Notes under the pieces: model-generated
The model's input: only the letters and a program-made list of their open reading frames with translations
What the model was told of the DNA's origin: nothing
Databases searched by the model: none
In this document: one piece after another, positions 1-44,698 of the stretch
How positions within the stretch are numbered: position 1 is the first letter of the stretch
Layout: the number at the start of each line of letters is the position of its first letter
IMG/VR virus record: IMGVR_UViG_3300037424_000686
Span: 1-44,698 of that record
From: a virus
Reading direction: 5' to 3' (one strand)
Length of the DNA stretch: 44,698 nucleotides
Made by a program: the position numbers and the translations under genes

Positions 1-145
1 CCTGCGCGGCGCGGACCTGTACGGCGCGGACCTGTACGGCGCGGACCTGTACGGCGCGAACCTGCGCGGCGCGAACCTGGGCGGCGCGAACCTGGGCGGC
101 GCGAACCTGCGCGGCGCGGACCTGTACGGCGCGGACCTGCGCGGC
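1..145. repeat. 15-bp in-frame tandem repeat GCG(G/A)ACCTG(TAC/CGC/GGC)GGC, 9 full units plus a partial unit
   Basis: Units lie at 11-25, 26-40 and 41-55 (identical), then 56-70, 71-85, 86-100, 101-115, 116-130 and 131-145. Bases 11..135 are identical to 44574..44698, and bases 1..30 are identical to 44669..44698. Confidence 0.95.
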
Positions 146-442
146 GCGAAGTACAGCGCGCGCACGTGGTGGCCCGCGCCTACGATGTTGTTGCTAGCGA
201 ATTGGGGCCTAGTGGACGACGACCTCACGACCGCACTGATGCGCCTCGACGCATCCTGCCACCCGGACCCGGCCGCGTTCGATCGGTGGGCCGCGGACGG
301 ACCGTGCCCCTACGATGGGGTGCCCTTCGAACGCGCCGCCAATTTCCAACAGCAGAAGGCCCTGTGGTCGCCTGGATCGGTCTCCCCGATGTGGTGCGTC
401 CAGGAGCTGCTGCGCCGGTACCTCGTGGTGGGTGGCGCGTGA
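1..442 (+). CDS. pentapeptide-repeat protein, distal part (gene begins at 44535 and continues across the window junction)
   Basis: Frame 2 is open from base 2 and reads LRG (ADLYG)x3 ANLRG (ANLGG)x2 [24 protein letters not shown]..., i.e. A(D/N)LxG pentapeptide units. A non-repeat C-terminal domain of about 95 aa follows, ending at TGA 440-442. It joins in frame to 44535..44698 (ga + c = GAC). Confidence 0.8.
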
Positions 443-3156: not shown

Positions 3157-3320
3157 CATTCCCGAAGCAGCTGCTCATCGTGGAAGGCGTTGATGGTGCG
3201 TACTATGCCTATCCGACCGTCGCGGATATTCCTGATGACGAGGACGGCACGGAAGTCGCGACGTACGCGTTCGTCGAGTCCCCCGGGCACCTGACGGTCA
3301 CGAAACAGGTGGAACGATGA
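3153..3320 (+). CDS. hypothetical acidic protein
   Basis: Internal ATG 3153 overlaps the upstream stop (ATGA). Sequence MTFPKQLLIVEGVDGAYYAYPTVADIPDDEDG... Confidence 0.45.
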   Translation: MTFPKQLLIVEGVDGAYYAYPTVADIPDDEDGTEVATYAFVESPGHLTVTKQVER

Positions 3321-3457
3321 AGCTCACGAACGCCGTGATCCGGGAATTTGAGCGCGACCAGCGCGAGGGTGGGACCCGCATTGCCCTGCACAACCCGCTC
3401 TGGCAGGTCGCGGCGGGCATCCTGCGCGACCTGGGCGCGAAGCGGAGGAAACCGTGA
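3317..3457 (+). CDS. hypothetical protein (46 aa)
   Basis: Hand-translated: MKLTNAVIREFERDQREGGTRIALHNPLWQVAAGILRDLGAKRRKP. It has an ATGA overlap upstream and a GTGA overlap downstream. Confidence 0.4.
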   Translation: MKLTNAVIREFERDQREGGTRIALHNPLWQVAAGILRDLGAKRRKP

Positions 3458-7564: not shown

Positions 7565-7741
7565 GTACGCTCGTGATGCTCGCCGTCGCGCTGCTAACGT
7601 GCTGGGCGATCTGGCAGCATCGCGAAGAAAACTGAGGTAGGCGCGGGCCGAGGAGGAAATGCCTCGGTAGGACGAACAGGTTCGAATCCTGTCGATCCCG
7701 GGTTGGGGTTACAGCGCCGTTCGATTCGGCGCCCGCGCCAT

Positions 7742-12100: not shown

Positions 12101-12522
12101 CTTGCCTACGCGGTGGCGGTGAGGGCACCCATGTATGCAGTATGTTCCCGGATCATCTGGGGGCGCCCCCCGCCGGCCGCAATGGTTTGCCGGTGGACGC
12201 CGTAGCCCGGAAGGCGCTCCCGCTCTGCACCGGGGTCCTGGACTACTTTCCGGACGCGCTGCTCGCGGTCGCGCACTGCTCGAAGGTCGGGAACGACCAG
12301 CACAACCCCGGCGAGCCGCTCCATTGGGCAAAGGAGAAGTCCACGGACGAGGCGGACGCGCTCGTGCGGCACCTCCTCGAGCGCGGGACGCTCGACACGG
12401 ACGGGGTCAGGCACTCCGCAAAGGTGGCGTGGCGGGCCCTGGCCCTTCTCCAGCGCGAGATTGACGCGGAGCGGGCCCGGGAGGGCGGGCCCGGGAAGAT
12501 CGGGGCTCCCGGGGGCCCGTAG
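12097..12522 (+). CDS. DUF5664-like protein (resembles the N-terminal domain family of MazZ-type dATP/dGTP diphosphohydrolases)
   Basis: ATG 12097 overlaps the primase stop (ATGA). LPLCTGVLDYFPDALLAVAHCSKVGNDQHN...ADALVRHLLERG...HSAKVAWRALALLQ matches my memory of the DUF5664 pattern (L..lA.v...G..KY...NW ... RHl ... H.a...n.l.L). No database check was possible. Confidence 0.5.
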   Translation: MTCLRGGGEGTHVCSMFPDHLGAPPAGRNGLPVDAVARKALPLCTGVLDYFPDALLAVAHCSKVGNDQHNPGEPLHWAKEKSTDEADALVRHLLERGTLDTDGVRHSAKVAWRALALLQREIDAERAREGGPGKIGAPGGP

Positions 12523-12745
12523 CTCGGTACGTCCTAAAAAGAGGACAGTTTGTAACAGGAACGTAATGGGGCCCACAGCTTCACGGCTCCCCTCCCTGTT
12601 GGGGCCTGCTAGAATCCTAGCACTGGTGCCGCAATTTGCAATAGCTGGGACTTGCAGAAAGTCAGACTGGACAGGCCGGGACGTATGCCCTAACGTAGTC
12701 TCCGCGCCAGGGTGATCCCGCCCGGCTAGCCAAAGGAGCCCCAAC

Positions 12746-13012
12746 ATGACAGCCCAACCGACGAACTGCCCCTATTGTGGAATCGAGCCCGGCGAAGCCC
12801 ATCAAGTTGAGTGCAATCGTCCCGAGCGACCGACCCGTACTGTCGAGTGGTCGGCGACAGCCTTGACCTTTTTGAGGAACGGGCAGATAGCCGCGCTCTA
12901 TTTCGTTCCCTCGCCCGTCAGCGATGGCGACCGCGTGAGCCCGATCTATCAGCGGTACATTGCTGACTGGATTGAGCGAGGCGTCTGGCCGTTGGCGGCG
13001 TGCGGCGTTTGA
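12746..13012 (+). CDS. hypothetical protein with N-terminal CxxC...C knuckle (lower-GC cassette)
   Basis: AAAGGAG lies 8 nt upstream of the ATG. Motif NCPYCGIEPGEAHQVEC. Codon third positions are visibly less GC-rich than in flanking genes. Confidence 0.6.
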   Translation: MTAQPTNCPYCGIEPGEAHQVECNRPERPTRTVEWSATALTFLRNGQIAALYFVPSPVSDGDRVSPIYQRYIADWIERGVWPLAACGV

Positions 13013-13248
13013 TGCCTGACTCCCCCGCCACCCGTGCCGAAGCGATGGCCCTGTTGCGGGCTGCGATTGACCGCACCGGGCTCTCTGCGTCTAAGTACGC
13101 CCGTGTCGTGCTGATCCGCGACCCCCGGACGCTTCGGCGCTGGTTGTCGGGGGAGTCGCCCATCCCGCAGGCCGTCTTGGACCTCATCACCCGACAGGCT
13201 GGCGACGGGCACCCGATGCCCACGGGCTCGGAGCGGGAGCGCTCGTGA
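13012..13248 (+). CDS. helix-turn-helix DNA-binding protein (Cro/XRE/YdaS-like)
   Basis: ATG 13012 overlaps the upstream stop (TGATG). LSASKYARVVLIRDPRTLRRWLSGESPIPQAVLDLI is a typical HTH followed by the RRWL.G...iP tail. Confidence 0.6.
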   Translation: MPDSPATRAEAMALLRAAIDRTGLSASKYARVVLIRDPRTLRRWLSGESPIPQAVLDLITRQAGDGHPMPTGSERERS

Positions 13249-13709
13249 TGACTCGGGCGCAGGTCGGGCGTATCCGGGCGCTCGCCGAAGAGGCGGTCGC
13301 CTACCACAAACAGACGGCGATGTGCGAAATGCCGGCCACCTGTGGTGGCTGCCACTGGTGGGGCGGGTACCTCGCGGCTATCCAGGACATCACCAACGGC
13401 GTCGATCCCAACACCAGATCGCTTGTGGCCCCGTCGTTTCCAATTAGGTTTGGGGCACCACTCAATCCCCGGAGCAACCAAATGCAGATCACGATCAACG
13501 TTTCGCGGCGGGTTCCGATCACCGATCCTGGCGTGTACCATTGGGTCCCCGATGGTACACTCACCGGAGAGATCATTCTCCAAATCGACGAGCAGAAGCT
13601 CGCCCGGCTGCTCGGTCCCCGCGCTCTGCGTAGTAAGTCCCACAAGTCCACGCTCGCGGGCGGTGCCATCGTCGCGCGGGCCATTCATCTCACCCGTTCG
13701 GAGGTTTGA
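13245..13709 (+). CDS. hypothetical protein (lower-GC cassette)
   Basis: ATGA overlap with the upstream gene. CEMPATCGGCHWWGG Cys/His cluster. No family recognised. Confidence 0.55.
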   Translation: MMTRAQVGRIRALAEEAVAYHKQTAMCEMPATCGGCHWWGGYLAAIQDITNGVDPNTRSLVAPSFPIRFGAPLNPRSNQMQITINVSRRVPITDPGVYHWVPDGTLTGEIILQIDEQKLARLLGPRALRSKSHKSTLAGGAIVARAIHLTRSEV

Positions 13710-13711
13710 AC

Positions 13712-14503
13712 ATGCAAGGCCTGATGCTGCACAGCGGTTCCGCGGCCGCGGACGAGTCCCAGGTCCGCGCTGTCCCCACGCCCGAGGCGACCGAGAGCTG
13801 GCGCCCGGTCCCCCACCACCGCGTCCTGGACCTCGCGCGGAGCGAGATCGAGTCGCTCGGCTTCCGGATCACGGACGCCGCGCACGGGCTCTGGAACAAC
13901 GGGCTCCGGTACTTCGGTCTGCTCGAGCTCGCGAACGGCGCGGGCGCGGCCGACTACTCCCTCGTCGCCGGCATCCGCAACTCGCACGACAAGAGCTTCC
14001 CCGCGGCGCTCTCGATCGGCTCCCGGGTGTTCGTGTGCGACAACCTCGCCTTCTCGGGCGAGATTGTGATCTCGCGCCGGCACACCACGTACATCGAGCG
14101 CGACCTGCCCGGGCTCGTGGGCCGCGCGGTCGCGCGCCTGGTCGAGCAGCGCGAGCTGCAGGGAAAGCGGATCGACGCGTACAAGGCGTTCCAATTCGTG
14201 GAGGAGCGGGACGTGCACGACTTCGTGATCCGCGCGGTGGACGAGCGCGTGATCCCGAACGCCCGCATCCAGGACATCCTCGGGCAGTGGCGGAAGCCGG
14301 CGCACGAGGAATTTCGCGTCGCGCCCCGGACCGCGTGGTCGCTGTTCAACGCGTTCACGGAGTCCCTGAAGGGGATCGCGGAGTACGAGCTCGCGCGCCG
14401 CACCATGAAGCTACACGGCATGATGGACGCGCGCGCTGGCCTGCTGACGGCCGGCAACCTGGTGGGCGACGCGGTCGACGCGGACGTCCGCGTGGCGGCC
14501 TAA
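13712..14503 (+). CDS. DUF932/DUF945 family protein
   Basis: GGAGG lies 7 nt upstream of ATG 13712. IRNSHDKSFPAALSIGSRVFVCDNLAFSGEI...RRHT is the conserved core of the DUF932 (phage/plasmid-like) family. Confidence 0.75.
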   Translation: MQGLMLHSGSAAADESQVRAVPTPEATESWRPVPHHRVLDLARSEIESLGFRITDAAHGLWNNGLRYFGLLELANGAGAADYSLVAGIRNSHDKSFPAALSIGSRVFVCDNLAFSGEIVISRRHTTYIERDLPGLVGRAVARLVEQRELQGKRIDAYKAFQFVEERDVHDFVIRAVDERVIPNARIQDILGQWRKPAHEEFRVAPRTAWSLFNAFTESLKGIAEYELARRTMKLHGMMDARAGLLTAGNLVGDAVDADVRVAA

Positions 14504-14520
14504 CCCTCAACGACGAAAGG

Positions 14521-14542
14521 GCGGGCCCCTCCGGGGGCCCGC
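14521..14542 (+). terminator. GC-rich hairpin after the DUF932 gene (possible terminator/RNA stabiliser)
   Basis: GCGGGCCCC-tccg-GGGGCCCGC forms a perfect 9-bp stem 18 nt after the stop. A T-run (GATTTTT) follows only after about 10 nt, so intrinsic termination is uncertain. Confidence 0.4.
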
Positions 14543-14550
14543 AACCCACG

Positions 14551-14778
14551 ATGATTTTTCGACAACTTTCCTCCACGCTGGTCGCGGTGATTGGCACAAC
14601 GCCCGCGGAGAAAACCTGGGTCGAGCAGCAGCTTGATGTCCGGCCCTCGGAGCGGTTCCACGGCGCCGGTACGGTGTCCGTCGACGATGATCCCGGTGAC
14701 CTGATGAACTCGGCGCGCGCGTGCGGTTTCCCTGTCACGTACGAGGAGGGCGCTCCGGTCCCCGAGGGGGCGCCATGA
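14551..14778 (+). CDS. hypothetical protein
   Basis: Internal ATG 14551 of ORF 13342..14778, whose upstream part is out of frame over real genes. Sequence MIFRQLSSTLVAVIGTTPAEK... The stop overlaps the next ATG. Confidence 0.45.
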   Translation: MIFRQLSSTLVAVIGTTPAEKTWVEQQLDVRPSERFHGAGTVSVDDDPGDLMNSARACGFPVTYEEGAPVPEGAP

Positions 14779-14987
14779 ACTTCCGCACCTGGCAACCGGG
14801 CGTTCCAAATTCGGAGCGCGTCACGCCCGTGCCCGCGGACCCGCCCTACCAGCACGCGATCGAGGTAGAGCCCTCGTACGACCTGACCGACATCGCCGCG
14901 AACCCGGGCTTCTTCCTGCTCGGGTGGGGTGGACGGAACCGTTACCTCTATAGTCGCGCGGGGATGACCGGATCGAGGTCCCTGTGA
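14775..14987 (+). CDS. hypothetical protein
   Basis: ATG 14775 overlaps the upstream stop (ATGA). GC-rich third positions. Confidence 0.45.
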   Translation: MNFRTWQPGVPNSERVTPVPADPPYQHAIEVEPSYDLTDIAANPGFFLLGWGGRNRYLYSRAGMTGSRSL

Positions 14988-15274
14988 GCTCCCCGATCCC
15001 GGTCCCGGACGACGCGACCGTGCCGCGCATCAGCTCCACGAAGGGCTGGACCGTACGCCGCGCGTTGCGGATCGAGGTGTTCGTCGCCCCGGACGGCGTC
15101 GAGTACGTGCTCGCGCACCGGCTGGAGCCCGCGGACCTGATCCGGGACTTCGGTCCCGGGACGCGCCCGTGGCGCCTGGTGCTCCGCGAGGGGTCGAGCG
15201 CGGAGCGCGGGGAGGAGAGGCTTCGGAACCTGGCCGCCGGCCGTACGCGCCGGCAGAGAGCGAGGCGGAAATGA
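14984..15274 (+). CDS. hypothetical protein with basic C-terminus
   Basis: GTG 14984 overlaps the upstream stop (GTGA). This is the last gene of the plus-strand arm, followed by the terminator. Confidence 0.5.
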   Translation: MSSPIPVPDDATVPRISSTKGWTVRRALRIEVFVAPDGVEYVLAHRLEPADLIRDFGPGTRPWRLVLREGSSAERGEERLRNLAAGRTRRQRARRK

Positions 15275-15300
15275 TGAACGAGTAATCTCGACGGGTTGAT

Positions 15301-15340
15301 AGAAAAGCGGCCCCGCGATTGCGGGGCCGCTTTTGTTTTT
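15301..15340. terminator. bidirectional rho-independent terminator at the convergence of the two arms
   Basis: AGAAAA-GCGGCCCCGC-gatt-GCGGGGCCGC-TTTTGTTTTT: a perfect 10-bp stem with an A-tract and a T-tract on either side. It lies between the plus gene ending at 15274 and the minus gene ending at 15339. Confidence 0.85.
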
Positions 15341-18300
15341 AGAGCTGCTGGCGTTGCTGCTCGCGCGCCATCTGCCGCGCGAGGAGCCCACCGCCCGCGC
15401 CGGCCGCGAGCGGCGCGATCCCGAACGCGTACCGACCGAGCCGTGACCGTTCCACATTCCGCGCGATCTGCTGGAGCGCATCTGGATCGATGAGTGACGT
15501 CCACGCGGCCGGCGGTGCAGTGTACGGCGCGGGCGTCGGCGTGGGCAGGTCCATGCGCCCCACGAGATCGGCGAACCGGCCCCGGTTCAGTAGTGACGAG
15601 AAATCGGGTACCTGACGGATCACGTCTGGCGGCACGTCGAGCGCGGTCCACTGCATCCCGGCGCCGGGCAGCGTCAGCTGCGACGGGTGCGCGCCCGCGC
15701 TCGCGGGGTCGTGGAGCTCGGACATCGCTTTCGTCCAGCTCCACGCCGTCTCCTGCACCTCGTCCGGGGTCCAGGTGCGACCGGTCCGTTTCGTGAGGTA
15801 GTCCGCGGCCTCGCGCGCCCGGGCCGAGTATGCGACGTACGCACCTGGGGCTTCCCGCACCCCACGTGACACGGTTTCAATCCCCGCCAAGCGTGTCGGA
15901 TCGATGTTCGCAAGCTGCGCCATCCAGGTGTCGAGTGTGACGCGCTCCGTGTCGCCGATCAGGTTCCGGTAGAAGCTCTGCACCTTCGGACCGGACAATA
16001 CGAGCTCGGTCGGGTCGTCCGCGGACAAGGCGCGGAATGCGTTCTGCGCGCGCGATTGCGTCCGGGCGTCCGGTATCGCATGGATGACCCGTCGTAGCGC
16101 CAGGGCGTCCGCGGGGCGCCCCGCGCGTTGCCACGCGTCCCACACCTCAAGCGCTGTTTCGAGGTTGCGTTCGACCGGAATCTGCGGACTGAGCGACGCG
16201 AGCAGCGCCGCGAACCGGGGCGCGTCCGGGCCGAACGTCTCGACCAGCGCGCGCGCCGAGTTCGCGTACCACCCGAGCTTCGGGGCGCCCGCGAGCGACG
16301 CGGACGCGAGCGTTTCGGCGGGGGGCAGCTTCTTCGCGGCCGTGCCGAAGATGTCGCGCGACGCGCGCGACGCGAGGCGCGCGACCTCGTCGCCGCGCAG
16401 GAAGCCCGCGAGCCGCTTCGCGACCGGGTTCCGGAACGCGGGCACGCCCGTCAGCACGGTCGCCGCGGACAGCATCCCGCTCCCCTCCGGATCGCGCTCC
16501 GCGGCCGCGGCCGCGCTGCCACCGACCGCGATCCCGATCCCGTACCGGAACCGGGGATCATCGAGCTTGAAGCCGCCGACGTTCCGCGTGCTCTTGATTT
16601 GGGTCGGATCGAGCACGATGTACGAGTCGGCAAACTCTCCGTGTACCCCCGTCGGTTCTCCGGTATTGTGGTACACGATCGAGTCGTAGCCCGCGTCCTT
16701 CAGCACCTGCCGGAGCGCGTCCCAGCGCATCGCCTGGCGGCGCTTGATCCAATCCATCGTTGCCTTCGAGGATGCTTCGGTGTACGCGGATTGACCCATC
16801 ACGGACGTGTACCCGCCCGGCATCCCCTCGCGCCACGATACTAGCTCCGGCATCGGCCCGATCTTTGCGTCGATCTCGTCGTTCAGCGCGCGCTGCAGCT
16901 CAGTATAGTGCCCTGCGAGTGGTGGACCCGAGGGCTGCTCCCCGGGACGCAGGCGCGCGCGCAGCCGCTTGTCGAGGACCTCGCCGATCTTCGGGTCGTC
17001 GACGATCGCGCCCGCAAACACGTCCTGACCCCAGGCTCCGAGGTCCTCGAGCCGGAGCGGGTTCTCGGCGCGGATCATGTACTCGCCGATATGCTTTCCA
17101 CGTGCGACGGGTGACGCCATTGTTCGTCGTAGCCGCGACGCGGCCTGCCCTTGGGTCCCGAAGTGGAATCCGATGTCACCCGTCTTGCCGAACTGCTGGA
17201 ATTTCGCGGTCGTGCCGTGGTACACGGGCTCCGTGACCTGCGATTTCCCGAGCCAGCGGTTGTACCGTTCGTACGCCTTGTCGAGATACTCGGGAGACTT
17301 CTCCGCGCGGCGCGCGACAGTCGGGAACCGCTCCGCGAACGCGGACATCTCTTCGGCGCCTGGGACCTTGACTTCCTCGAACGTTCCGAGGTCGAAGATC
17401 GCGTCCTGTTTCCCCTCGCGCCCGATCCGAAGCGCCCGGTACCGGTTCTTCTCGGTGATGACGACGTCGAGCACGTGCCGGTTGTTCGCCTCATCGAACC
17501 AGGTCCCGATCGTGTGCCCGGGCTTGTCGAGCAGGTCCCGGTTCCGGTCCGCGAACACGCGCAGATCGTTCATCGTCGGGGGCGCGAGCGAGAGGAACTC
17601 TCGATCCTTGTACGGCGAGACCGCGTATCCCTTCGTGATCGGCTTCCCGGTCTTGAGGTCCACGGTCGAGCCGCCGCTCTTGTGCCGCTCCAGGATTTCC
17701 GCGAAGGCCTTTCGGCGCTCGGGCGTGAAGCGGCGCTCGTACGTCGGCGCCTCGTACGGCGTAGTTCCGGTGCGCGCGATCGGTTGCCCGACCGCGCTCG
17801 GCGTGACCGGGTAAAAGGAACTCACGACGCCGCGGCTCGGGGACTCGAGCCCCGTGTAGCCCGCGGCTTTCGCGGCGCGCTCGAGCTCGCTCCCCTTGAG
17901 GTCCGCGAACTCGGGCGGCAGCTCGTCCGCGTTCAGCCACGCGCCCGTCACGTCCGCGCGGTGCAGGACCTGCCCGACCCCGAGCTCGGGCGGCTTCGAG
18001 ATGTCGGTGTAGAAGAACGCGGACGGCACCCGATCGGCGCGCGCGCGCTCCGCGCCCTTCATCAGCACGTTCGTGCCGGTCTTGGAGGGGTCGATCACGT
18101 CCCGCGCGGCCTGGCTGTAGTGGTAGACGGTGCGCGTGCTTGTGGGGAGGTTTGCGGCGCGGGCCGCGGCGCCCGGATCAACGGGCTCCGCGGGTAGCTG
18201 CAGCGCCGCGGCCTCGAGCGGGCCCTCGCCCGCTCTGATCGCGCGCGACGCGGCCTCGCGGTCGAGGAACGCGCCGCCCGGGGTCACGAACCCGTCCTCG

Positions 18301-18971
18301 GACTGTTCGATCAGTTCTTTCGCGACGCCCGCGTCCTTCGCCGCGTCACGTGCGTCGCTGTGGAGCACACCGCGGAAGATGCGGCCATCGTCGAGCCGGA
18401 TCGCGGCCGATTCGAGTGCGCGCGCCGCACGGGCACCCTCACCCGCGGCCTTCACCCCGGAGCGAATCGCGCCGAGCGAGCCGACCCCGAGCGCGGCGAG
18501 CGCGGTCTGCCACGCGGGCACATCCTCCCCCTCCAGTCGGGCCCGGACGTCGCGCGCGACATCTCGGATCGACTGAATACCGCCCGCCATTTTGAAGGGG
18601 GCCGCGAGGAGCTCGATCCCGAGCCCCCCGGCTGCGATTCCCCTCGCGCTCGTCTTGGGGTCCGTGCTCACCGCGCCGCTCGCGATCGCGAGCACGTCCC
18701 CCGCGGAGCGCGGGTACAGGGCGCGGTCGATCGCGCGGAACGTCTCCTCGCGCTTGAGCACCCGGAGCCGCGCGAGCGCGGTGACCTGCTCGTCCGCGGG
18801 CTCTGGGGGCGCGGAGAAGCCCTCCCGCTCGCGGCGCGCGGCGTACCGCTCCCACTCGCGGCGAATCTTCGCGACCTGCCCACGGATCGCGGTCTGGTAC
18901 CGGGCCCGGGAACGGGAGCGGGACAGATTCCCGATGGCGTCCCGGATCGTGGGATCGAGGGGCGCGGTCAT
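15339..18971 (-). CDS. large multidomain virion (internal/ejected) protein, polyvalent-protein-like
   Basis: A 1210-aa ORF, the last gene of the late operon after three Gly-rich internal proteins. It contains two related modules: VYHYSQ...AAGYTGLESPSRGVVSSFYPV (aa 280-392) and VYHGTTAKFQQFGKTGDIGFHFGT...DAGYDSIVYHNTGE...SYIVLDP (aa 581-795). Confidence 0.8.
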   Translation of the reverse strand: MTAPLDPTIRDAIGNLSRSRSRARYQTAIRGQVAKIRREWERYAARREREGFSAPPEPADEQVTALARLRVLKREETFRAIDRALYPRSAGDVLAIASGAVSTDPKTSARGIAAGGLGIELLAAPFKMAGGIQSIRDVARDVRARLEGEDVPAWQTALAALGVGSLGAIRSGVKAAGEGARAARALESAAIRLDDGRIFRGVLHSDARDAAKDAGVAKELIEQSEDGFVTPGGAFLDREAASRAIRAGEGPLEAAALQLPAEPVDPGAAARAANLPTSTRTVYHYSQAARDVIDPSKTGTNVLMKGAERARADRVPSAFFYTDISKPPELGVGQVLHRADVTGAWLNADELPPEFADLKGSELERAAKAAGYTGLESPSRGVVSSFYPVTPSAVGQPIARTGTTPYEAPTYERRFTPERRKAFAEILERHKSGGSTVDLKTGKPITKGYAVSPYKDREFLSLAPPTMNDLRVFADRNRDLLDKPGHTIGTWFDEANNRHVLDVVITEKNRYRALRIGREGKQDAIFDLGTFEEVKVPGAEEMSAFAERFPTVARRAEKSPEYLDKAYERYNRWLGKSQVTEPVYHGTTAKFQQFGKTGDIGFHFGTQGQAASRLRRTMASPVARGKHIGEYMIRAENPLRLEDLGAWGQDVFAGAIVDDPKIGEVLDKRLRARLRPGEQPSGPPLAGHYTELQRALNDEIDAKIGPMPELVSWREGMPGGYTSVMGQSAYTEASSKATMDWIKRRQAMRWDALRQVLKDAGYDSIVYHNTGEPTGVHGEFADSYIVLDPTQIKSTRNVGGFKLDDPRFRYGIGIAVGGSAAAAAERDPEGSGMLSAATVLTGVPAFRNPVAKRLAGFLRGDEVARLASRASRDIFGTAAKKLPPAETLASASLAGAPKLGWYANSARALVETFGPDAPRFAALLASLSPQIPVERNLETALEVWDAWQRAGRPADALALRRVIHAIPDARTQSRAQNAFRALSADDPTELVLSGPKVQSFYRNLIGDTERVTLDTWMAQLANIDPTRLAGIETVSRGVREAPGAYVAYSARAREAADYLTKRTGRTWTPDEVQETAWSWTKAMSELHDPASAGAHPSQLTLPGAGMQWTALDVPPDVIRQVPDFSSLLNRGRFADLVGRMDLPTPTPAPYTAPPAAWTSLIDPDALQQIARNVERSRLGRYAFGIAPLAAGAGGGLLARQMAREQQRQQL

Positions 18972-19035
18972 GGGTCGCGGTCCACGCCATTCGGATTGTA
19001 TGGGCCTTTGGGCGCTCGCCGTACGTATTTGACGC

Positions 19036-20979
19036 TCATGGGTTCAAGTACGGTGCGAGCAGTCCCTGGAGCCGCGGCGCCTGCTGCGCCGCGCCGGTCT
19101 CCGCACCACCCACCGCGCCGCGCACGACCGCGTCCCAGATCGAGGGCTGTGCGAGTCCAGCGACCTCGCCCGCGGTCTCGGCGGCGGGGGTGAGTGTGAG
19201 CCGGAGGATTTCGTTCGCCCGGGCGCGCGCGAGCGCGCTGTTCGGGTTCGCAAGCAAGTTGAGGAGCGCGGCCTTCGGGCCCCAGAAGCCGCTCGTGCGC
19301 GCGGAGCGAAGCAGGTCCACCCCTTTCTCCGCGGTCTGAGATTGCTGCAGCATCAGGTTCTTGAGCGCGCTGAACTTTCCTTCCACGGCCGCGCGCTCCA
19401 TGAATTGCTCGAACGCGTCCGGGGTCCCGAACGCGGCACGGAGCGCGGTCCGCTGCGAGGGGCCGAGTGAGAGCATCTGCCCACCGACGTCCCGTCCACG
19501 GGGCGCCTTGAGGAGCCGGTTCACCAGCTCGTCCACCATCCCGTGCCGGTACGCTTCGAGCGCACGTGGCGATTCCTCGGCGGCGTCCTTCGCAAGTTGT
19601 GTCAGCTCGCGCTCGACCGCGTCCCCGGGCAGCGAGCGCGTGAAGGCCTTCGCGCCCATCCCGAACGCTTTGACGGTCGTCGCAGTTCGCGCGTAGCCCT
19701 GATTGGCGGCCCGGAACTCGGGGATGATCTCGTCGAGCACGTCGTCCAGGTACCGGCGACTGTCCTTGTACAGCTGCGCGAGCGCTGGGTCCCCGGACTT
19801 TAGCGCGGCCCCACGGGCCCCCACGAGCCGCTGCCGCAGCGCCTGCACGTGCGCGAACGAGATCGGCAGGTCCTTCTTCGTGCGCGGTCGGACCCGGCCC
19901 CAGATCGCGGCGACGTCCGGGTTCTTCAGGAAGTCCGCGATCCGTGGATCGTCCGGGAGTCGCGGGTACGCCTCCTCGATCGGACGGAACAGCTCCCGCC
20001 CGCGGGACGCGAGCCGCGCCTCCGCGGTCTCCCGAGCCACGGGCGCTGGCGCCCGGAATCCGGTCAGCTGCCGCACGTCCTCCGCGAGCCGCTCGCCGGC
20101 GCCCATCACGCGCCCACGCACCTGCTGGACCGCGCCCTCGATCGGTCCCGAGGCCTCGGTCACCGCGGAGCGGGTGAGCCGCCGCATCGTCTCGTCGAGG
20201 TCCGCGATGGTCCCCATCCCGGGCCGCACACTCTCGAGCTGCCGCACCCCACTCGTGATATCCTCGGGGCGCATTCCGGCCCGCTCCAGCGCCTCACTGA
20301 CCGCGGCGCGGCCCGCGACCGTCCCGGCGACCTTCGGCGCAACACGGCCCCAGATCGCGCGCGTGAACGCGGGGATCAGCTCGGTGAGGCCCGCGGCGAC
20401 GGTCCCGATCGTGCCGCCGGCCGCGGCCCCCACGCCCGCGCCCGCGAACATGCGCTCCGGGACCTCGGCGAGGCCCCGGGCCTCGCCGGCGCCCGCCAGG
20501 GCACCGTACGCGGCGCCCGTTGTGATCCCGCTCCCGATCTTCGGGAGTATCCCGCGACCGGCTGCCACCGGGCCGGCCATCGCGCCCGGTAGCGAGGCCC
20601 CCGTGATCTCGGAGGCCATCGCGGCGGCGGGGTGCGCGCTCCGGAACTCCTGCACCCGCTCGAGCATCGGCCCGCGTGCCCCGGGAGCGCCCGGGACGTT
20701 GACGGGTCCGCTGATGCCACTCTCGGCGAGCCAGGAGGCGAGCCCCGCGGTCGCGCCCATCGCGCCACCGCGGAGGAGGTCCGTGGTGGTCACGGGCGTG
20801 GTGGGCGGCTCGTTGAGGGCGCCCGAGCGGGCGAGCTGGAACAGCTGGTCCCAGCCGAGCTCCTGCCCACGGGCGCGCGTGACCTCGCGCACCCACTGAT
20901 CGAGTTTCGCGAGCGAGACGCCCTTGCGACGTTGCGCGTTCACGGCGCGCATCAGGTCCTGCAGGTACTTGGGGTCCAT
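19036..20979 (-). CDS. internal virion/ejection protein (Gly/Ala-rich membrane-like segments)
   Basis: 647 aa with long G/A-rich hydrophobic stretches (GAMGATAGLASWL, GSGITTGAAYGALAGAG, GAGVGAAAGGTIGTVAAGL). The start follows the upstream stop after 1 nt. Confidence 0.65.
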   Translation of the reverse strand: MDPKYLQDLMRAVNAQRRKGVSLAKLDQWVREVTRARGQELGWDQLFQLARSGALNEPPTTPVTTTDLLRGGAMGATAGLASWLAESGISGPVNVPGAPGARGPMLERVQEFRSAHPAAAMASEITGASLPGAMAGPVAAGRGILPKIGSGITTGAAYGALAGAGEARGLAEVPERMFAGAGVGAAAGGTIGTVAAGLTELIPAFTRAIWGRVAPKVAGTVAGRAAVSEALERAGMRPEDITSGVRQLESVRPGMGTIADLDETMRRLTRSAVTEASGPIEGAVQQVRGRVMGAGERLAEDVRQLTGFRAPAPVARETAEARLASRGRELFRPIEEAYPRLPDDPRIADFLKNPDVAAIWGRVRPRTKKDLPISFAHVQALRQRLVGARGAALKSGDPALAQLYKDSRRYLDDVLDEIIPEFRAANQGYARTATTVKAFGMGAKAFTRSLPGDAVERELTQLAKDAAEESPRALEAYRHGMVDELVNRLLKAPRGRDVGGQMLSLGPSQRTALRAAFGTPDAFEQFMERAAVEGKFSALKNLMLQQSQTAEKGVDLLRSARTSGFWGPKAALLNLLANPNSALARARANEILRLTLTPAAETAGEVAGLAQPSIWDAVVRGAVGGAETGAAQQAPRLQGLLAPYLNP

Positions 20980-37636: not shown

Positions 37637-39145
37637 TTACACAACCCCTTTCACCCCGCGCTTGAGTGGTGTGCTCCACGCGACGTGCGCGAAGCCCATC
37701 GCGATCGTGGCGCCACCCGCGAACGTCAGCAGGAACGCGTCGAGCCGATCCGGCGATCGGCGCGGGTGGATGTACTTCATCATGTCCGCCTTCGGGAGCG
37801 CGAGCACGAGCCCGCTCGAGAGGAGCGCTTTGTACTTCTGCGCCGCGGCCTCCTGCTCGAACTTCGGATCGTGCGGGATCGCGCAGTCCCGCGCGTAGAA
37901 CCAGTCGCGGGCCGCGAAGCAGAGCTCGGTGCGAACGTTCTTGTACCGCTCGCTGTTCAGCGCGGGCGTCTCGGACACGTTGATCGCGATCGCGGGGAGC
38001 CCAAGCTCGATCAGCCGATCGGCGGTCCCCTTCCCGATCCCGATCGCGTCCACGTAGATCGCGACCGGACGATCGAGCGGCGGGCACAGGTCCCACTCGG
38101 CCTTGATGACCCCCACGAGCAGCATCGAGTCCCGGAGCCCGGCCCAGGTCTTGATCGGCTCGGTGAGCACGTTCGCTTTCCGCTTCGCGAGCGTCGCGAG
38201 GTCGTGCGAGAGCCCCGGGTCGACGCCCCACACGACGGGCGCGGTCGGGGACGGTTGCACGTTCCGCCCGCGCGCGGCCTCGATCAGCTCGAGCGGGATG
38301 ATGACATCCGCCTCGCTCCGGGGCGGGCGGCCCAGGACGCGGACCCGGTACACGTTGCTGTCCTCGCCGTACTCCTCCGCGATCATGATCCCGAGCTTCG
38401 GGTCGACCCGCTCCGAGATGTAGGTCCCCTGCCCATCGGGCTCGATCGTCCCGCAATGCTCGCCGGCGTGCGCGGTCACGTGCACTCGATACCAGCTGCT
38501 CGCGCCCTCGCCGTGATTCGCGTTGTAGAAGAAGCCGCTCGTGCGGTACGGGTTCCCGGCGAGGATCGTGCACGCGTTGTGCTGCGACATCGAACCGAGC
38601 CCGGCCTCGAAGATGGTGCCCGGCACGCCGTCCGCCTCGTCCGCGATCAGGAGCACGAAGCCCGGGTCGCAGTGAATGCCCTGCAGCGCCTCCGGGGTCT
38701 CGGGGCGCGCGGTCCGGAACGTTGCGAAGCTCTCGATCGGGGACGCGAGCAGCTCGATCCGGTCGCTCTTGACGTTGTACAGCACACGGATCGCGGGCGG
38801 CAGGCGCTGCATCCACTTCTTGACCTCGGCGAGGAGCGCGTCCTCCATCTGCCCCGAGGTCGGGGCGGTCGCGGCCACCTTCTGCGGGTAGCGGGTCGTG
38901 AGCTGGATCACCACGAGCCACGCGATCCCGCACGTTTTCCCGGGCCCGTGACAGCTCTCGATGGCGATCTGCCGTACCCCACGCCCGTATGCGCGCAGCA
39001 TCGCGAGCTGGAATGGGTCCGGGGTCGCCCCGAGCACCTCGCGCACGAACCGCTCCGGTCCGTACTCGCCGGCCTGAGGGCCGTACGCCTCGAGCCAAGC
39101 CTCGAACACGGCCCGAGGGCCCGCGATCGGTATGGCGCTCACCAC
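37637..39145 (-). CDS. terL: terminase large subunit
   Basis: Walker A is ESCHGPGKT and Walker B is FVLLIADEADGV, with a C-terminal nuclease-type domain. 502 aa. GTG start overlaps the upstream stop. Confidence 0.9.
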   Translation of the reverse strand: MVSAIPIAGPRAVFEAWLEAYGPQAGEYGPERFVREVLGATPDPFQLAMLRAYGRGVRQIAIESCHGPGKTCGIAWLVVIQLTTRYPQKVAATAPTSGQMEDALLAEVKKWMQRLPPAIRVLYNVKSDRIELLASPIESFATFRTARPETPEALQGIHCDPGFVLLIADEADGVPGTIFEAGLGSMSQHNACTILAGNPYRTSGFFYNANHGEGASSWYRVHVTAHAGEHCGTIEPDGQGTYISERVDPKLGIMIAEEYGEDSNVYRVRVLGRPPRSEADVIIPLELIEAARGRNVQPSPTAPVVWGVDPGLSHDLATLAKRKANVLTEPIKTWAGLRDSMLLVGVIKAEWDLCPPLDRPVAIYVDAIGIGKGTADRLIELGLPAIAINVSETPALNSERYKNVRTELCFAARDWFYARDCAIPHDPKFEQEAAAQKYKALLSSGLVLALPKADMMKYIHPRRSPDRLDAFLLTFAGGATIAMGFAHVAWSTPLKRGVKGVV

Positions 39146-40212
39146 GACCTCCGCTGTACGTACACGACCCGGCGCGCGCGGCCGAGACCGACGTATAATG
39201 CCGGCACCTCGAGCTCGAAGGCGCTGATCCGGACCCGGCGCGGTTCGGGCACGTCCGGGGTCTCGATCTCGATCGCGCTCACGCGCACCCGCCGCGGCGA
39301 GCCTGGGACCTCCATCTCGACCGCGCTGATCCGGACCCGACGCGGCGCGTTCGGCACCTCGATCTCGACCGCGGACACCCTCGCCCGGCGCGGGGCGTTC
39401 GGGACCTCGAACTCGAACGCACTGATCCGGACACGCTTGTCTGCCACGGCGTCCGGGACCTCGAACTCGACTGCGCTCACGCGCACGCGGCGCGGGGAAG
39501 TTGGGACCTCGATCTCCACCGCGCTCACGCGCACGCGGCGCGGGGCGTTCGGCACCTCAAGCTCGAACGCGCTGATCCGGCCCTGGCGATCGGTCGGGGT
39601 CGAGCTGATCTCGAACCATGGGTTCAGCGTGGTGCCGGTCTGGGTATCGTTCTCGGCCAGATCACCGCCCGCGCCGTCGGACCCCCAGCGCATCGACGCA
39701 TTGTGGCCCTGCGTGCCGCCGCCGCCGCCGGGCGTTCCCTGGCAGCTGAACTCCACCACCAGTCGATCTCCTGAGACCGTGGTGTACGCGCTCGCGACCG
39801 TGGTGCTGAGGAACACGCTCCGAAGCGCGGTGTTGAACTCCGCGGCGATGACCTTCGCCCTAAGCGTCTGCCGGAGCGTCGCGCCGTCGTTGCTGTAGAC
39901 ACCAACCCAAATTTGCAGTGTCTGGTTGTTGGCCGCGCTCGGCTCCAGGCCCTGCACGCAGCACTTGATGACATTGCCCACGTCGAACACCGTGCCCGTC
40001 GTGAGCGCGTCGGAGACGAACTGCACGTGGAACGAGTCGCCCGCGGCGGCGTGATCGGCGGCGTCGGGCGTGACCGCCTGGGTCGCGAGCGCAGTTGCGT
40101 CCGAGGTTGGGAGCGGCCGGCGTGTGGACGCCAGGGTGTGCGTGTACGACTGCAGCGCAGGGCTAACAGCTGCGCTACCGCTCGCCGGCAACCGGAACCA
40201 CAGGTCCGCCAT
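39139..40212 (-). CDS. beta-rich protein with eight C-terminal 16-18-aa tandem repeats
   Basis: 357-aa ORF whose ATG directly follows the upstream TAA. Residues ~210-338 are repeats of RVRVSAVEIEVPxxPR. Confidence 0.7.
   Translation of the reverse strand: MADLWFRLPASGSAAVSPALQSYTHTLASTRRPLPTSDATALATQAVTPDAADHAAAGDSFHVQFVSDALTTGTVFDVGNVIKCCVQGLEPSAANNQTLQIWVGVYSNDGATLRQTLRAKVIAAEFNTALRSVFLSTTVASAYTTVSGDRLVVEFSCQGTPGGGGGTQGHNASMRWGSDGAGGDLAENDTQTGTTLNPWFEISSTPTDRQGRISAFELEVPNAPRRVRVSAVEIEVPTSPRRVRVSAVEFEVPDAVADKRVRISAFEFEVPNAPRRARVSAVEIEVPNAPRRVRISAVEMEVPGSPRRVRVSAIEIETPDVPEPRRVRISAFELEVPALYVGLGRARRVVYVQRRSW
39199..39585 (-). repeat. coding tandem repeat, 8 units of 48-54 bp
   Basis: The peptide units are: GRISAFELEVPNAPR; RVRVSAVEIEVPTSPR; RVRVSAVEFEVPDAVADK; RVRISAFEFEVPNAPR; RARVSAVEIEVPNAPR; RVRISAVEMEVPGSPR; RVRVSAIEIETPDVPEPR; RVRISAFELEVP. 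The DNA units are diverged rather than identical. Confidence 0.9.
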
Positions 40213-41767: not shown

Positions 41768-42288
41768 AGCAAATCCTCCAGCTTTGGGGGTGAGAGCAGC
41801 TCAGGCTGCGCGGGTAGGGATTCGACGACTGTCTCGGCGGGGAGCGCGGCCGCGCCACCCTTCGCCTTGAGGGCGTCGAGGTGCAACGTTCCAATGTTGA
41901 TCTGCACGCCACCGGTCTTCGGCGGGGCGTACTCCTCGCTCAACGTGCCGGCCAGCCAGCGCCGCGTATCGGCGCGCAGCTTCGCGCCAGCCACGATCGC
42001 GCTCTCGGTCTCACCCTCGGTCTCGTCCACGATGTCGACCGCCTCGTCCACGAGCGCGTGCGGCGTCTCCTCGCGGCGGACCCGGTAGAAGGCCTCGAGC
42101 CACTCGGGCTTCAGCTTCAGGTACTTGCGGATCAGCTGGCGGGACACACCCTCGGGCTTGACGTCCGTGAACTGCTTCCCGACCCAACTGAGGGTCTTAC
42201 CCTCGGCGACCCAATCGAGGATGACCTCGACCCCGCCGCGGGCCGCGACGCGCTCCTGGAGTAGGGCGAAGATGGGCATACCAGGCAT
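41764..42288 (-). CDS. terS: terminase small subunit
   Basis: An N-terminal HTH-like segment (KTLSWVGKQFTDVKPEGVSRQLIRKYL) is followed by AGAKLRADTRRWLAGTLSEEYAPPK, the ARLR.DTRKW...K..P..Y signature I associate with TerS proteins. It is the first gene of the late arm. Confidence 0.65.
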   Translation of the reverse strand: MPGMPIFALLQERVAARGGVEVILDWVAEGKTLSWVGKQFTDVKPEGVSRQLIRKYLKLKPEWLEAFYRVRREETPHALVDEAVDIVDETEGETESAIVAGAKLRADTRRWLAGTLSEEYAPPKTGGVQINIGTLHLDALKAKGGAAALPAETVVESLPAQPELLSPPKLEDLL

Positions 42289-42333
42289 TCGGCTTCCGAG
42301 CTCCAGGGCTGGGCGTGTGGGTTGTGGGCACGA

Positions 42334-42382
42334 AAAAGCCGCCCACTACCGAATATATGCCACATTCCTGCCAAAATGTCAA
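42334..42382 (-). promoter_or_regulatory. promoter-like element facing terS (left arm of a 49-bp inverted pair)
   Basis: The minus strand reads TTGACA-N19-TATATT inside TTGACAttttggcaggaaTGTGGCATATATTCGGTAGTGGGCGGCTTTT. The 31-nt core is 28/31 identical to the right arm. Confidence 0.45.
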
Positions 42383-42406
42383 GTGGTGAGTAAGTACTCA
42401 CTATCT

Positions 42407-42687
42407 GTGACAGATGTGACAGATCGGTGACAGATTTTTAAAAATCTGTCACACCCCTAGCCCCCGGCGTGGCAACGAGTTACGAGATACCGTGACAGAT
42501 GTGACAGATTTTGGTCCGCATGACGGCGTATAGTGTATATAGCGTGTAGTGTCTTACGTACGTATGCCTGTCATAGAGCAAATAATCTGTCACATCTGAC
42601 AAGACAGGGCCTAACCACTATGCGCGATAAGCGGTTAGCGTTGTAATGTTTCCGCCAAGCATCTGTCACATCTGTCACATCTGTCAC
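42407..42687. repeat. ten copies of 9-mer ATCTGTCAC / GTGACAGAT in dyad-symmetric tandem arrays (iteron/operator-like)
   Basis: GTGACAGAT occurs at 42407, 42416, 42427, 42492 and 42501. ATCTGTCAC occurs at 42444, 42585, 42661, 42670 and 42679, plus a degenerate ATCTGACAA at 42594. Bases 42427-42452 form a perfect 26-bp palindrome, GTGACAGATTTTTAAAAATCTGTCAC. An AT-rich core lies around 42520-42570. Confidence 0.9.
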
Positions 42688-42705
42688 ACCCTCGAGCTCT
42701 CCGAC

Positions 42706-42754
42706 TTGACTCCGGGCCCCGATTGTGGCATGTATTCGGTAGTAGGCAGCTTTT
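42706..42754 (+). promoter_or_regulatory. promoter-like element facing the early arm (right arm of the inverted pair)
   Basis: TTGACT-N19-TGTATT inside TTGACTccgggccccgatTGTGGCATGTATTCGGTAGTAGGCAGCTTTT, followed by CCCTGGAGG and ATG 42779. Confidence 0.45.
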
Positions 42755-42778
42755 CACCGAAACCCTGGAGGTCACCCT

Positions 42779-43261
42779 ATGCTGTTCCCCCTCACGTTCA
42801 TGCTGCTCGCCGGCGTCGCCCTCGGCGCTACGGTCCTGTTCCTGGTCCGTCCCCCGGAGGTCGTGACGCGCGAGGTCGAGCTGCCCGTGTTCGTCCCCAC
42901 GCCCGTGTACCCGGACACCGCGGCCGGCGTCCTGGACGTGATCGACCGGCTGCTCGCGTCCGGGTTCCGCCCCAACGCTGGTCATGCCCCCGGGAGCCCG
43001 GCGTTCGAGTCGCGCGCGCTCTGGGACGTCCTGAGCGCGCTCCGCGGCCCCGACAGCAACGATGTGGCCGTGAAGGCCCGCACCACCGAGGTGATCCGCA
43101 CCCGCGCGTTCCCGTGCACCGCGCTCACCAGGTGCGGCCCCGCGGACTTCGCCCCGCCGGGCAACCCGCTCCTGGTAGACACGAGCGGTCTCTCGTACTT
43201 CGATCACTTCCGGATGCACGCCGTTTTTGCGGATGCCGCGCTGCGGGCGATGGGGCGCTGA
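42779..43261 (+). CDS. N-terminally membrane-anchored protein, hypothetical
   Basis: GGAGG lies 7 nt upstream of the ATG. TM helix LTFMLLAGVALGATVLFLV. This is the first gene of the early arm. Confidence 0.6.
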   Translation: MLFPLTFMLLAGVALGATVLFLVRPPEVVTREVELPVFVPTPVYPDTAAGVLDVIDRLLASGFRPNAGHAPGSPAFESRALWDVLSALRGPDSNDVAVKARTTEVIRTRAFPCTALTRCGPADFAPPGNPLLVDTSGLSYFDHFRMHAVFADAALRAMGR

Positions 43262-43593
43262 TGCCGCGCGCCACGAAGCGGGCACGACGTCGCACCCTGC
43301 GGCATGGGACGGCTATGAGCCGCGGCCCCGAGGTCCCGATCGGGCTCGAGGGCGTGCCGCCCGCGCTCCTGGCCGCGTGGCGCCGCGAGCATGTCGCCCG
43401 CGCCGAGTCCGGTCCCGAGTTCCTGACCACCGCGCAGCTGCAGGCGCTGTGGGGCGTGGGCCGGAGCGCGACCGGCCTGCGCCTGCGCCGGATGGCGCGC
43501 GCGGGTCGCATCGAGCGCGGCCTCCGTCGCGCCGGCACGATCCTGGTCCCCGCATACCGACTGAGACACCCTGCAAGGAGTCCCGATGAATGA
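43261..43593 (+). CDS. winged-helix DNA-binding protein
   Basis: ATG 43261 overlaps the upstream stop (TGATG). FLTTAQLQALWGVGRSATGLRLRRMARAGRIER followed by ILVPAYRL looks like an HTH plus wing. Confidence 0.55.
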   Translation: MPRATKRARRRTLRHGTAMSRGPEVPIGLEGVPPALLAAWRREHVARAESGPEFLTTAQLQALWGVGRSATGLRLRRMARAGRIERGLRRAGTILVPAYRLRHPARSPDE

Positions 43594-43687
43594 CCAACTG
43601 CAGAAGCTGTGGTATCGCGCCCAGGATACCTTCTCCCAGTTCGGCCGTCGAGCGCGCGACCACGGCCGTAGGAGCACCGACCGATGA
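43586..43687 (+). CDS. hypothetical micro-protein (33 aa)
   Basis: Hand-translated: MNDQLQKLWYRAQDTFSQFGRRARDHGRRSTDR. It overlaps both neighbours (ATGA at 43684-43687). Existence is uncertain. Confidence 0.3.
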   Translation: MNDQLQKLWYRAQDTFSQFGRRARDHGRRSTDR

Positions 43688-44538
43688 GCGCTGCGCCGCA
43701 CCGCTTCCTCGACAACCTGCACGCGCAGTTCCGGCGCCGCGAGGTCACGCTCCGGTACCCCGATTCCGCGTTCCCGGAGCTGCACGTGCATGTGCCCGAT
43801 CGCTGGCCGACCATCCAGCTCGCGCCGCTGTACGACGTGCACCTCGGGCACCGGCAGCACGACGCCGCGCTCTTTCGCGAGCACGTGGCATGGATCGCGG
43901 ACACCGCGAACGTGCTCACCTTCAACGGCGGGGACCTGATCGACAACAGCTCGAAGCTGTCCGTGGGCGGTGGCGTGTACGAGCAGGACATGATGCCCGA
44001 CGCGCAAATCACGGCCTCCCTCGAGGAGCTGGCCGGCATCCGGCACAAGATGCTGTTCGCGCTTCCCGGGAACCACGAGCAGCGCTCCGGGATGATGGGG
44101 CTCGATGTCGCGAAGTGGATCGCGACGGCGCTCAAGGTCCCGTACTACCCGGACTACTGCCTCTGTACCATCCACTGGCGCAAGAACCGCTTCCGGCTCC
44201 TCGCGCACCACGGGAGCGGCAGCGCGGTCACCGCGGGCGCGCAGCGGATGGCGGCCCGGAAGGACCTGACCTGGGCGAAGCCGGTCGACCTCTACTGGAC
44301 CGGGCACCTGCACAACCCGCTCGTGGACATGCTCTATCAGACGGACGCCGATCAGCGGACCGGCACATACCACGAGCGGAACGCGCTCGCGATCATCAGC
44401 CCGAGCTACCTCGGCTTCTTCGGCACGTACGCCGCGCAGAAGCGGTACCACCCCGGAACGCGGGGCCTGGCGGTCGTGATTTTGAATCCGAACGGACGCA
44501 TCGACGTGTCCATTCACGCACGCGGGAGGCGGCTATGA
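43684..44538 (+). CDS. calcineurin-like metallophosphoesterase
   Basis: All five MPE blocks are present in order: YDVHLGH (DxH), NGGDLID (GDxxD), PGNHE (GNHE), LAHHGSG (H) and TGHLH (GHxH). Confidence 0.85.
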   Translation: MSAAPHRFLDNLHAQFRRREVTLRYPDSAFPELHVHVPDRWPTIQLAPLYDVHLGHRQHDAALFREHVAWIADTANVLTFNGGDLIDNSSKLSVGGGVYEQDMMPDAQITASLEELAGIRHKMLFALPGNHEQRSGMMGLDVAKWIATALKVPYYPDYCLCTIHWRKNRFRLLAHHGSGSAVTAGAQRMAARKDLTWAKPVDLYWTGHLHNPLVDMLYQTDADQRTGTYHERNALAIISPSYLGFFGTYAAQKRYHPGTRGLAVVILNPNGRIDVSIHARGRRL

Positions 44539-44698
44539 AGATCAACGGTGTAGAGGTATCCATCAGGCCGTACGCGGACCTGTACGGCGCGGACCTGTAC
44601 GGCGCGGACCTGTACGGCGCGAACCTGCGCGGCGCGAACCTGGGCGGCGCGAACCTGGGCGGCGCGAACCTGCGCGGCGCGGACCTGTACGGCGCGGA
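44535..44698 (+). CDS. pentapeptide-repeat protein, proximal part (continues at base 1)
   Basis: The ATG overlaps the upstream stop (ATGA). Reads MKINGVEVSIRPY (ADLYG)x3 ANLRG (ANLGG)x2 [11 protein letters not shown]..., open to the end of the window. Confidence 0.8.
   Translation, partial: MKINGVEVSIRPYADLYGADLYGADLYGANLRGANLGGANLGGANLRGADLYGA
44574..44698. repeat. 15-bp in-frame tandem repeat, second copy of the block at 11..135
   Basis: Base-for-base identical to 11..135. Confidence 0.95.

Follow-up and report, generated by a model that had tools for sequence, protein, structure and literature searches.

Overlapping metallophosphoesterase, pentapeptide-repeat and HD phosphohydrolase genes at the head of a phage non-structural arm: probably not a dedicated three-gene system

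Do three phage genes that are packed stop to start form one functional system, or do they only share a place? The question is raised by the IMG/VR virus record IMGVR_UViG_3300037424_000686, analyzed here over positions 1 to 44,698 (the window, meaning this whole stretch of DNA), in which the genes of a metallophosphoesterase (MPE), a pentapeptide-repeat protein (PRP) and an HD phosphohydrolase (HD) follow one another. An earlier note on this DNA had seen the trio as a plausible unit of counter-defense or signal erasure. With moderate confidence, we favor a different answer: that the region opens the non-structural (replication/early) arm of a ~44.7-kb dsDNA phage, in which MPE and HD are lineage-conserved genes of DNA and nucleotide metabolism and the PRP is an independent accessory, rather than three parts of a dedicated system.

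The window comprises a circularly assembled dsDNA phage genome that looks complete (44,698 bp, 68% GC); its genes form two divergent arms. The trio lies across its junction:

43684-44538, + strand: MPE, 284 aa, joined to the micro-ORF (open reading frame) before it by an ATGA link; five motifs
44535..44698, + strand: 5' part of the PRP gene (N-terminal 13 aa and first repeats), with an ATGA overlap with the MPE gene; runs off the window end
1..442, + strand: 3' part of the PRP gene, with the rest of the repeats (1-148) and the C-terminal domain (~176-439); in-frame across the junction, stop at 440-442
439-1092, + strand: HD phosphohydrolase, 217 aa from GTG 439 or 213 aa from ATG 451, with a GTGA overlap at 439

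The public gene call for HD, P0126, uses ATG 451. The ORFs listed in the earlier note are all where it had placed them, with the start/stop overlaps that it described, and it had correctly identified the genes, their close head-to-tail arrangement and their place at the start of the non-structural arm.

Whether the genes travel together can be read from their relatives; failure to co-occur there had been set beforehand as the outcome that would refute a unit. Loci around MPE homologues (32 from IMG/VR and 80 from metagenomes) were searched with hidden Markov models (HMMs) for MPE, HD and the PRP C-terminal domain. HD was counted in the 40 distinct loci that had a close MPE and continued 3' of it for at least 3 kb, and was found on the same strand, no more than 3 kb downstream of MPE, in 12 of them, usually one to three genes away. 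Clustering of neighbors placed HD beside MPE in 14/55 loci, as one of several frequent neighbors, and no partner gene was universal in these 55 loci; the two top 'neighbor' clusters were discarded as alternative-frame ORFs within the MPE gene. The linkage of MPE and HD is thus loose and extends to roughly a quarter to a third of the MPE loci.

The PRP behaves differently from this pair. Its C-terminal domain occurs in two of the 44 MPE loci that were flanked by 1 kb or more on either side (L030 and L052), in addition to L002, a near-identical 2.4-kb metagenomic contig (~91% nucleotide identity). Among 15 viral loci found via the C-terminal domain, MPE and HD are both present in L003 only, which is the same contig as L030, and MPE or HD lies near the PRP gene in one or two of the 15. 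No conserved neighbor of the PRP gene was detected in 23 loci. The three genes do not co-occur in relatives, and the reading of the trio as one system is therefore unsupported.

Syntenic relatives illustrate these differences. The window and L002 share the order wHTH-(micro-ORF)-MPE-PRP-HD-TM, where wHTH stands for a winged-helix DNA-binding protein and TM for a transmembrane protein. In L018, the order from terS runs through MPE-HD-TM to the helicase, without a PRP gene. In L030, a first PRP gene follows terS, and further on come wHTH, a second PRP gene, MPE, TM, HD and, later, the helicase. As MPE and HD are kept while the position and presence of the PRP vary, MPE and HD are lineage core genes and the PRP is a mobile accessory cassette. 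The two PRP copies of L030/L003 (IMGVR_UViG_3300037722_000485, 1605-4492) are ~1.4 kb apart. Two copies of the gene with its C-terminal domain are seen in L005 as well, there in tandem (7386-9253).

The core gene MPE has the metallophosphoesterase superfamily (PF00149) motifs DxH, GD, GNH[DE], H and GHxH intact (D51xH53, G83D84, G129N130H131E132, H175/H176 and G207H208xH210), and they are invariant in 27 homologues. The Pfam Metallophos score is marginally below cut-off (21.3 vs 21.5 bits). MPE matches PHROG 7339, 'DNA repair exonuclease', at E 3e-34, and has 315 homologues at E <= 1e-5, the best 120 of which are 54-92% identical and almost all metagenomic. A single-sequence pattern scan of IMG/VR with MPE returned nothing, and an alignment-based scan of IMG/VR succeeded. 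The MPE profile gave only noise against PDB sequences, and NCBIfam held no match for MPE, HD, the TM protein or the wHTH protein. Judging by its motifs, MPE is catalytically intact; its family is strongly conserved and is found on viral and metagenomic contigs.

The AlphaFold2 (AF2) model of MPE (pLDDT 85) adopts the αββα sandwich fold and matches many MPE structures at probability 1.00. The best PDB fold match is the PolD DP1 proofreading exonuclease (E 2.5e-8, TMq 0.53), followed by Mre11 (E 1e-5, TMq 0.46-0.49) and then by LpxH, GpdQ, purple acid phosphatase and PP1. Among predicted viral structures, it resembles uncharacterized 'calcineurin-like' phage proteins (TM-score ~0.7). MPE is most likely a metal-dependent DNA phosphodiesterase, that is, a nuclease of the Mre11/PolD-DP1 structural type.

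One MPE homologue, P0038 (62% identity), was observed within a 1.25-Mb contig (L051, ena:ERZ25039554 contig_1265, 9000-20846). The same replication module follows 3' of MPE there (SNF2 helicase, DUF2800 exonuclease, Enc34-type single-stranded DNA-binding protein (SSB), PolA and Prim-Pol), and the locus comes directly after RHS-repeat genes. The presence of MPE and the module inside so long a contig indicates that relatives of the window phage may be prophages.

HD belongs to PHROG 318 (E 3.5e-29), and 152 GenBank phage records contain homologues. The family profile matches Atu1052 of A. tumefaciens (2GZ4, E 2e-41) and, less closely, YfbR of E. coli (2PAQ, E 1.9e-8), both HD 5'-nucleotidases; OxsA was matched as well. 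The metal ligands and the Glu of the motif H...HD..E...GD...D are kept as invariant residues (H49, H82-D83, E86, G90-D91 and D140), and together with the profile match they place HD among the YfbR-like (PF12917)/PHROG 318 proteins. Unlike YfbR, the single HD sequence scores below the Pfam YfbR-like gathering score (13.3 vs 25.9 bits). By sequence, HD is a nucleoside-5'-monophosphate phosphohydrolase of the YfbR/Atu1052 type with a predicted substrate. The earlier note had seen both hydrolases as possible signal erasers; their families are annotated as generic nuclease and deoxynucleoside-monophosphate (dNMP) nucleotidase. A role in erasing cyclic nucleotides is conceivable, but nothing specific supports it.

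Phage MPEs with experimental data hint at what this pair might do. In phage T5, degradation of the host DNA requires the predicted metallophosphatase A1, which also suffices for it; the same pre-early region encodes Dmp, a dNMP 5'-phosphatase that removes dNMPs (bioRxiv 10.64898/2026.04.02.716235). Mycobacteriophage A10ZJ24 has an early-expressed MPE, Gp48, which is active as a phosphodiesterase and disrupts the genomic DNA of the host (PMC12287305). By analogy, the MPE of the window would most likely cut DNA, either the host chromosome or ends that arise during phage recombination and replication, and HD would then dephosphorylate the dNMPs released by this cutting. The two would thereby be a functional analogue of A1 and Dmp and not a detectable sequence homologue. 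Substrates, expression timing and host effects of MPE, HD and PRP are inferred throughout.

The likeness to T5 lies in the arrangement. In both phages, an MPE gene and a dNMP-type phosphohydrolase gene share one block, in which a DNA-binding protein, a small membrane protein and further small ORFs surround the pair; the T5 block is the first to be expressed, and early timing would be the counterpart here. Unlike A1 (556 aa), MPE has 284 aa, and the two-step injection context of T5 is lacking; tblastn gave no Demerecviridae match. The MPEs of cluster A mycobacteriophages (A10ZJ24 Gp48/Bxb1 gp47, ~255 aa) are likewise stand-alone proteins with five motifs, encoded in the replication region, but belong to another phage lineage with other neighbors. 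MPE as a homologue of T5 A1 or Bxb1 gp47, and HD as a homologue of T5 Dmp, were tried and rejected, since no homology was detectable, and the T5 comparison is therefore kept as a functional and architectural analogy only. The host-takeover role that the earlier note proposed for the whole trio is plausible, with these precedents, for MPE and HD.

The main rival of this explanation involves no host takeover. MPE would be an Mre11/SbcD-like end-processing nuclease that serves recombination-dependent replication together with RusA, the exonuclease and the SSB of the phage, and HD would only balance nucleotide pools. The genomic setting agrees with such housekeeping: in every long locus, MPE lies upstream of the helicase, PD-(D/E)XK exonuclease, SSB, PolA and primase, and an Endo VII/HNH-like gene is a frequent neighbor (17/55 loci). 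Mre11 and PolD DP1 are among the fold matches, and the MPE gp47 of Bxb1 is needed for phage DNA replication. However, unlike Mre11/SbcD, which MPE resembles by predicted fold only, it has no Rad50/SbcC-like ATPase partner among the annotated genes of the window, where every ORF above 500 aa is assigned otherwise (polymerase, primase, portal, TerL or virion proteins). The position of MPE at the very start of the arm, before the replication genes, fits an early function, and the early phage MPEs with experimental data, T5 A1 and Gp48, degrade host DNA. We regard a pure housekeeping role as rather unlikely.

Several observations weigh against the reading that we favor. The MPE-HD linkage is seen in only 25-30% of loci, and shared ancestry may explain part of it. 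The start/stop overlaps of all three genes in the window and L002 are compatible with co-expression and, being so tight, with a local functional link of the PRP to MPE/HD. The nuclease fold matches of MPE are only moderate (TM-score ~0.5), with other MPE subfamilies close behind, so that its assignment to a substrate class is tentative. As for the precedents, MPE has no homology with T5 A1 (hhalign probability 0.2%) and no significant profile match with Bxb1 gp47 (0.7%), and HD has no detectable homology with T5 Dmp (BLASTP E 27). Unlike in T5, no genes of de novo dNTP synthesis were seen in the + arm (no ribonucleotide reductase, thymidylate synthase or dNMP kinase), so that a T5-style destruction of dNMPs would run without an obvious compensating supply.

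The third gene encodes a clear pentapeptide-repeat protein (Pfam Pentapeptide, PF00805, E 7e-35; 118.6 bits vs a cut-off of 20.2), with tandem A(D/N)LXX repeats and a predicted right-handed quadrilateral β-helix. In the AF2 model, built on a 6-sequence alignment, the β-helix spans residues ~10-105 with pLDDT 80-91, and the helical C-terminal domain reaches 60-75. Foldseek recovered generic pentapeptide β-helices, with Rfr23 superposing at an rmsd of 0.8 Å over 94 residues and MfpA and Qnr lower down; all matches were to the β-helix and none to the C-terminal domain.

The earlier note had considered this protein a DNA mimic. A β-helix like those of MfpA, Qnr and AlbG is indeed predicted, but the acidity expected of a mimic is mild (net charge -4 and pI 4.3 for the repeat region, with whole proteins of relatives at -4 to +2, all from sequence), and the NCBIfam MfpA and Qnr models score the PRP 5- to 25-fold below their cut-offs (MfpA 48.7 vs 360 bits; Qnr 29 vs 240). 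Unlike these mimics, the PRP has generic cyanobacterial Rfr/NP275 proteins as its best structural matches, a repeat number that is not conserved and an additional C-terminal domain of ~85 aa.

This domain defines a family of its own. An exhaustive profile search collected 534 cluster representatives, compared with five proteins from a word-index search; nearly all of the 534 come from viral or metagenomic contigs. The domain is nearly always C-terminal, in proteins of 80-290 aa, and its invariant residues are mostly aromatic, along with one His, one Arg and a CPY motif. Among the best 150 of the 534 members, 123 carry at least three tandem pentapeptides and 27 carry none, the repeat number ranging from 0 to 25. 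No match to the domain was found in Pfam (40 members scanned), PHROGs or GenBank phages, and its profile gave noise only against PDB sequences. It occurs 15 times in IMG/VR and five times among 185,579 species genomes, all on contigs of metagenome-assembled genomes (MAGs). The PRP is an independent, mobile accessory gene that joins a β-helix of variable length to a conserved, unannotated and putatively helical domain; the protein probably binds a host protein by itself. The conserved family of C-terminal domains is the only new element of the region.

These data bear on the counter-defense unit proposed for the trio, in which the PRP β-helix would mimic DNA and block a host DNA-binding defense protein while MPE and HD erase nucleotide second messengers or danger signals. 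The translational overlap of the three genes in the window and L002, their presence within 3 kb in L030 and the modeled, mildly acidic β-helix agree with it. In addition, a defense system that senses m6-dAMP from phage-induced chromosome breakdown is antagonized by DNA mimics (PMC12871103), which makes a logic of nuclease, dNMP eraser and mimic conceivable. Yet the PRP is absent from 42/44 MPE loci and its family lacks a conserved neighbor; its order and copy number vary even among syntenic relatives; and a repeat number that can fall to zero, a net charge that can turn positive and scores far from the MfpA/Qnr cut-offs do not suit a mimic. HD, moreover, belongs to a YfbR-like family of monophosphate phosphatases, not to a known family of ring nucleases or cyclic-nucleotide phosphodiesterases. 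We consider the unit very improbable.

Just as improbable to us is a bolder version centered on the PRP family. Its members would be new phage host-targeting effectors, with the C-terminal domain as the functional module and the β-helix as a fast-evolving decoy, recruited here between a host-DNA-degrading MPE and a dNMP phosphatase; the trio would degrade host DNA, erase dNMP danger signals and block a DNA-binding defense protein. The HMMs of PADLOC-DB, which model defense and not anti-defense systems, gave no match for any of five proteins searched.

The PRP gene raises a further question, as the assembler evidently broke inside its pentapeptide tandem repeat. The earlier note had joined the two parts across the junction, and the join holds: the frame is open from 44535 to 442, and the window ends are truly adjacent because L002 carries MPE-PRP-HD uninterrupted. 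An exact 30-nt direct repeat is common to both window ends, inside an array of pentapeptide repeats with a 15-nt period. The last 126 nt of the window (44573-44698) equal positions 10-135, so that a simple join gives two 100% identical units of 135 nt. Such a join yields 18 repeats and 201 aa, collapse of the 30-nt overlap 16 repeats and 191 aa, and a single 135-nt unit 9 repeats and ~156 aa; the PRP of L002 (P0001) has 5 repeats and 136 aa. It looks as if the assembler had collapsed or expanded the repeat, or as if the repeat truly varies fast.

Could the PRP ORF, or its length, then be an artefact that arose because assembly failed to resolve the tandem repeat? We give this even chances. The contig end inside the repeat, the shared 30 nt, the identity of the last 126 nt with the beginning and of the two 135-nt units, and the mere 5 repeats of L002 all point that way. 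On the other side, the N-terminus and the C-terminal domain of the PRP are conserved in L002 (the latter with 100% amino acid identity), the domain recurs in the 534 cluster representatives, and the reading frame is kept under every join, leaving the repeat count alone uncertain. The PRP gene is real; its repeat number (5, 9, 16 or 18) and its length are not fixed by the assembly.

The surroundings of the trio complete the picture of an arm head. The + arm runs from 42779 across the junction to ~15274 and encodes RusA, an SNF2-type helicase, a PD-(D/E)XK exonuclease, a gp2.5-type SSB, a family A DNA polymerase (PolA) and a primase. The - arm, from 42288 down to 15339, holds TerS, TerL, portal, scaffold, the major head protein (MCP) and virion proteins. 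No tRNA genes were found in the window, and blastn of 42400-44698 against GenBank phages gave no DNA match. The + arm opens with a chain of overlapping stops and starts that extends from 42779 across the junction to 1409, and whose remaining features, with the region ahead of them, are:

42289..42778, no strand: divergent intergenic region from terS (- strand) to the first + gene, with the 9-mer copies and the palindrome described below
42779-43261, + strand: 160-aa protein with an N-terminal hydrophobic TM helix, first gene of the + arm; GC content at third codon positions (GC3) 0.92
43261-43593, + strand: putative wHTH protein, 110 aa, start overlapping the TM-protein stop as TGATG
43586-43687, + strand: putative 33-aa micro-ORF, overlapping the wHTH stop and joined to MPE by the ATGA link
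1089-1409, + strand: membrane protein, 106 aa, whose GTG 1089 overlaps the HD stop (GTGA) and continues the chain

The 160-aa TM protein has no Pfam match and a weak match to PHROG 11206. The sole support for the wHTH assignment is Pfam AbiEi_4 at E 1.7e-4, below cut-off; a 38%-identical homologue lies at the equivalent position in L030. The micro-ORF matches no family in Pfam or PHROG and has no counterpart in L030. The 106-aa membrane protein has a homologue 3' of HD in L002, and L018 carries a TM protein at the same place.

The intergenic region ahead of the arm is rich in repeats. A 9-mer, ATCTGTCAC/GTGACAGAT, occurs in ten exact copies within 42407-42687 and nowhere else in the genome, three of them in tandem at 42661-42687. 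Its count of one-mismatch matches was reached by none of 100 shuffles. A perfect 26-bp palindrome, GTGACAGATTTTTAAAAATCTGTCAC, at 42427-42452 is part of the 9-mer copies. Neither of the syntenic relatives, L018 and L030, contains the motif in its exact form. The repeats are possibly operator sites of the adjacent wHTH protein, or terS-binding repeats of the cosB/pac-like kind, and the region 42289-42778 is a putative promoter/operator or packaging site. The earlier note had spoken of an early promoter-like element; a sigma-70 scan of 42200-43700 gave a single weak promoter-like match (42416-42445), and both 'early' and 'promoter' are inferences. A terminator scan of the same stretch found none.

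Three features elsewhere in the window were also recorded. A holin-like protein with three TM segments (1599-2063, + strand; Pfam GTA_holin_3TM E 2.8e-6, PHROG 3427 holin E 5.8e-7) is encoded ~500 nt downstream of HD, in the non-structural arm and far from the virion genes. A DUF932 protein (Pfam E 1.2e-6) lies close to the + arm end (13706-14503, + strand). A 48-nt tandem repeat at 39201-39580 (~7.7 copies, 68% matches, with a 150-nt period as well) sits in a 357-aa ORF (39139-40212, - strand) that adjoins the large terminase gene and has no PHROG match.

For the biology of these phages, the trio as such matters little: the association does not extend beyond a single narrow lineage, and each of the two hydrolases comes from a family that is common in phages. 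Conservation within the MPE family is unusually high, at 47-92% identity among viral and metagenomic contigs that are otherwise unrelated. If T5 A1 and Gp48 are a guide, its members may be widespread nucleases that degrade host DNA. The C-terminal domain of the PRP, which is described in no database, offers a defined, testable family of phage accessory proteins.

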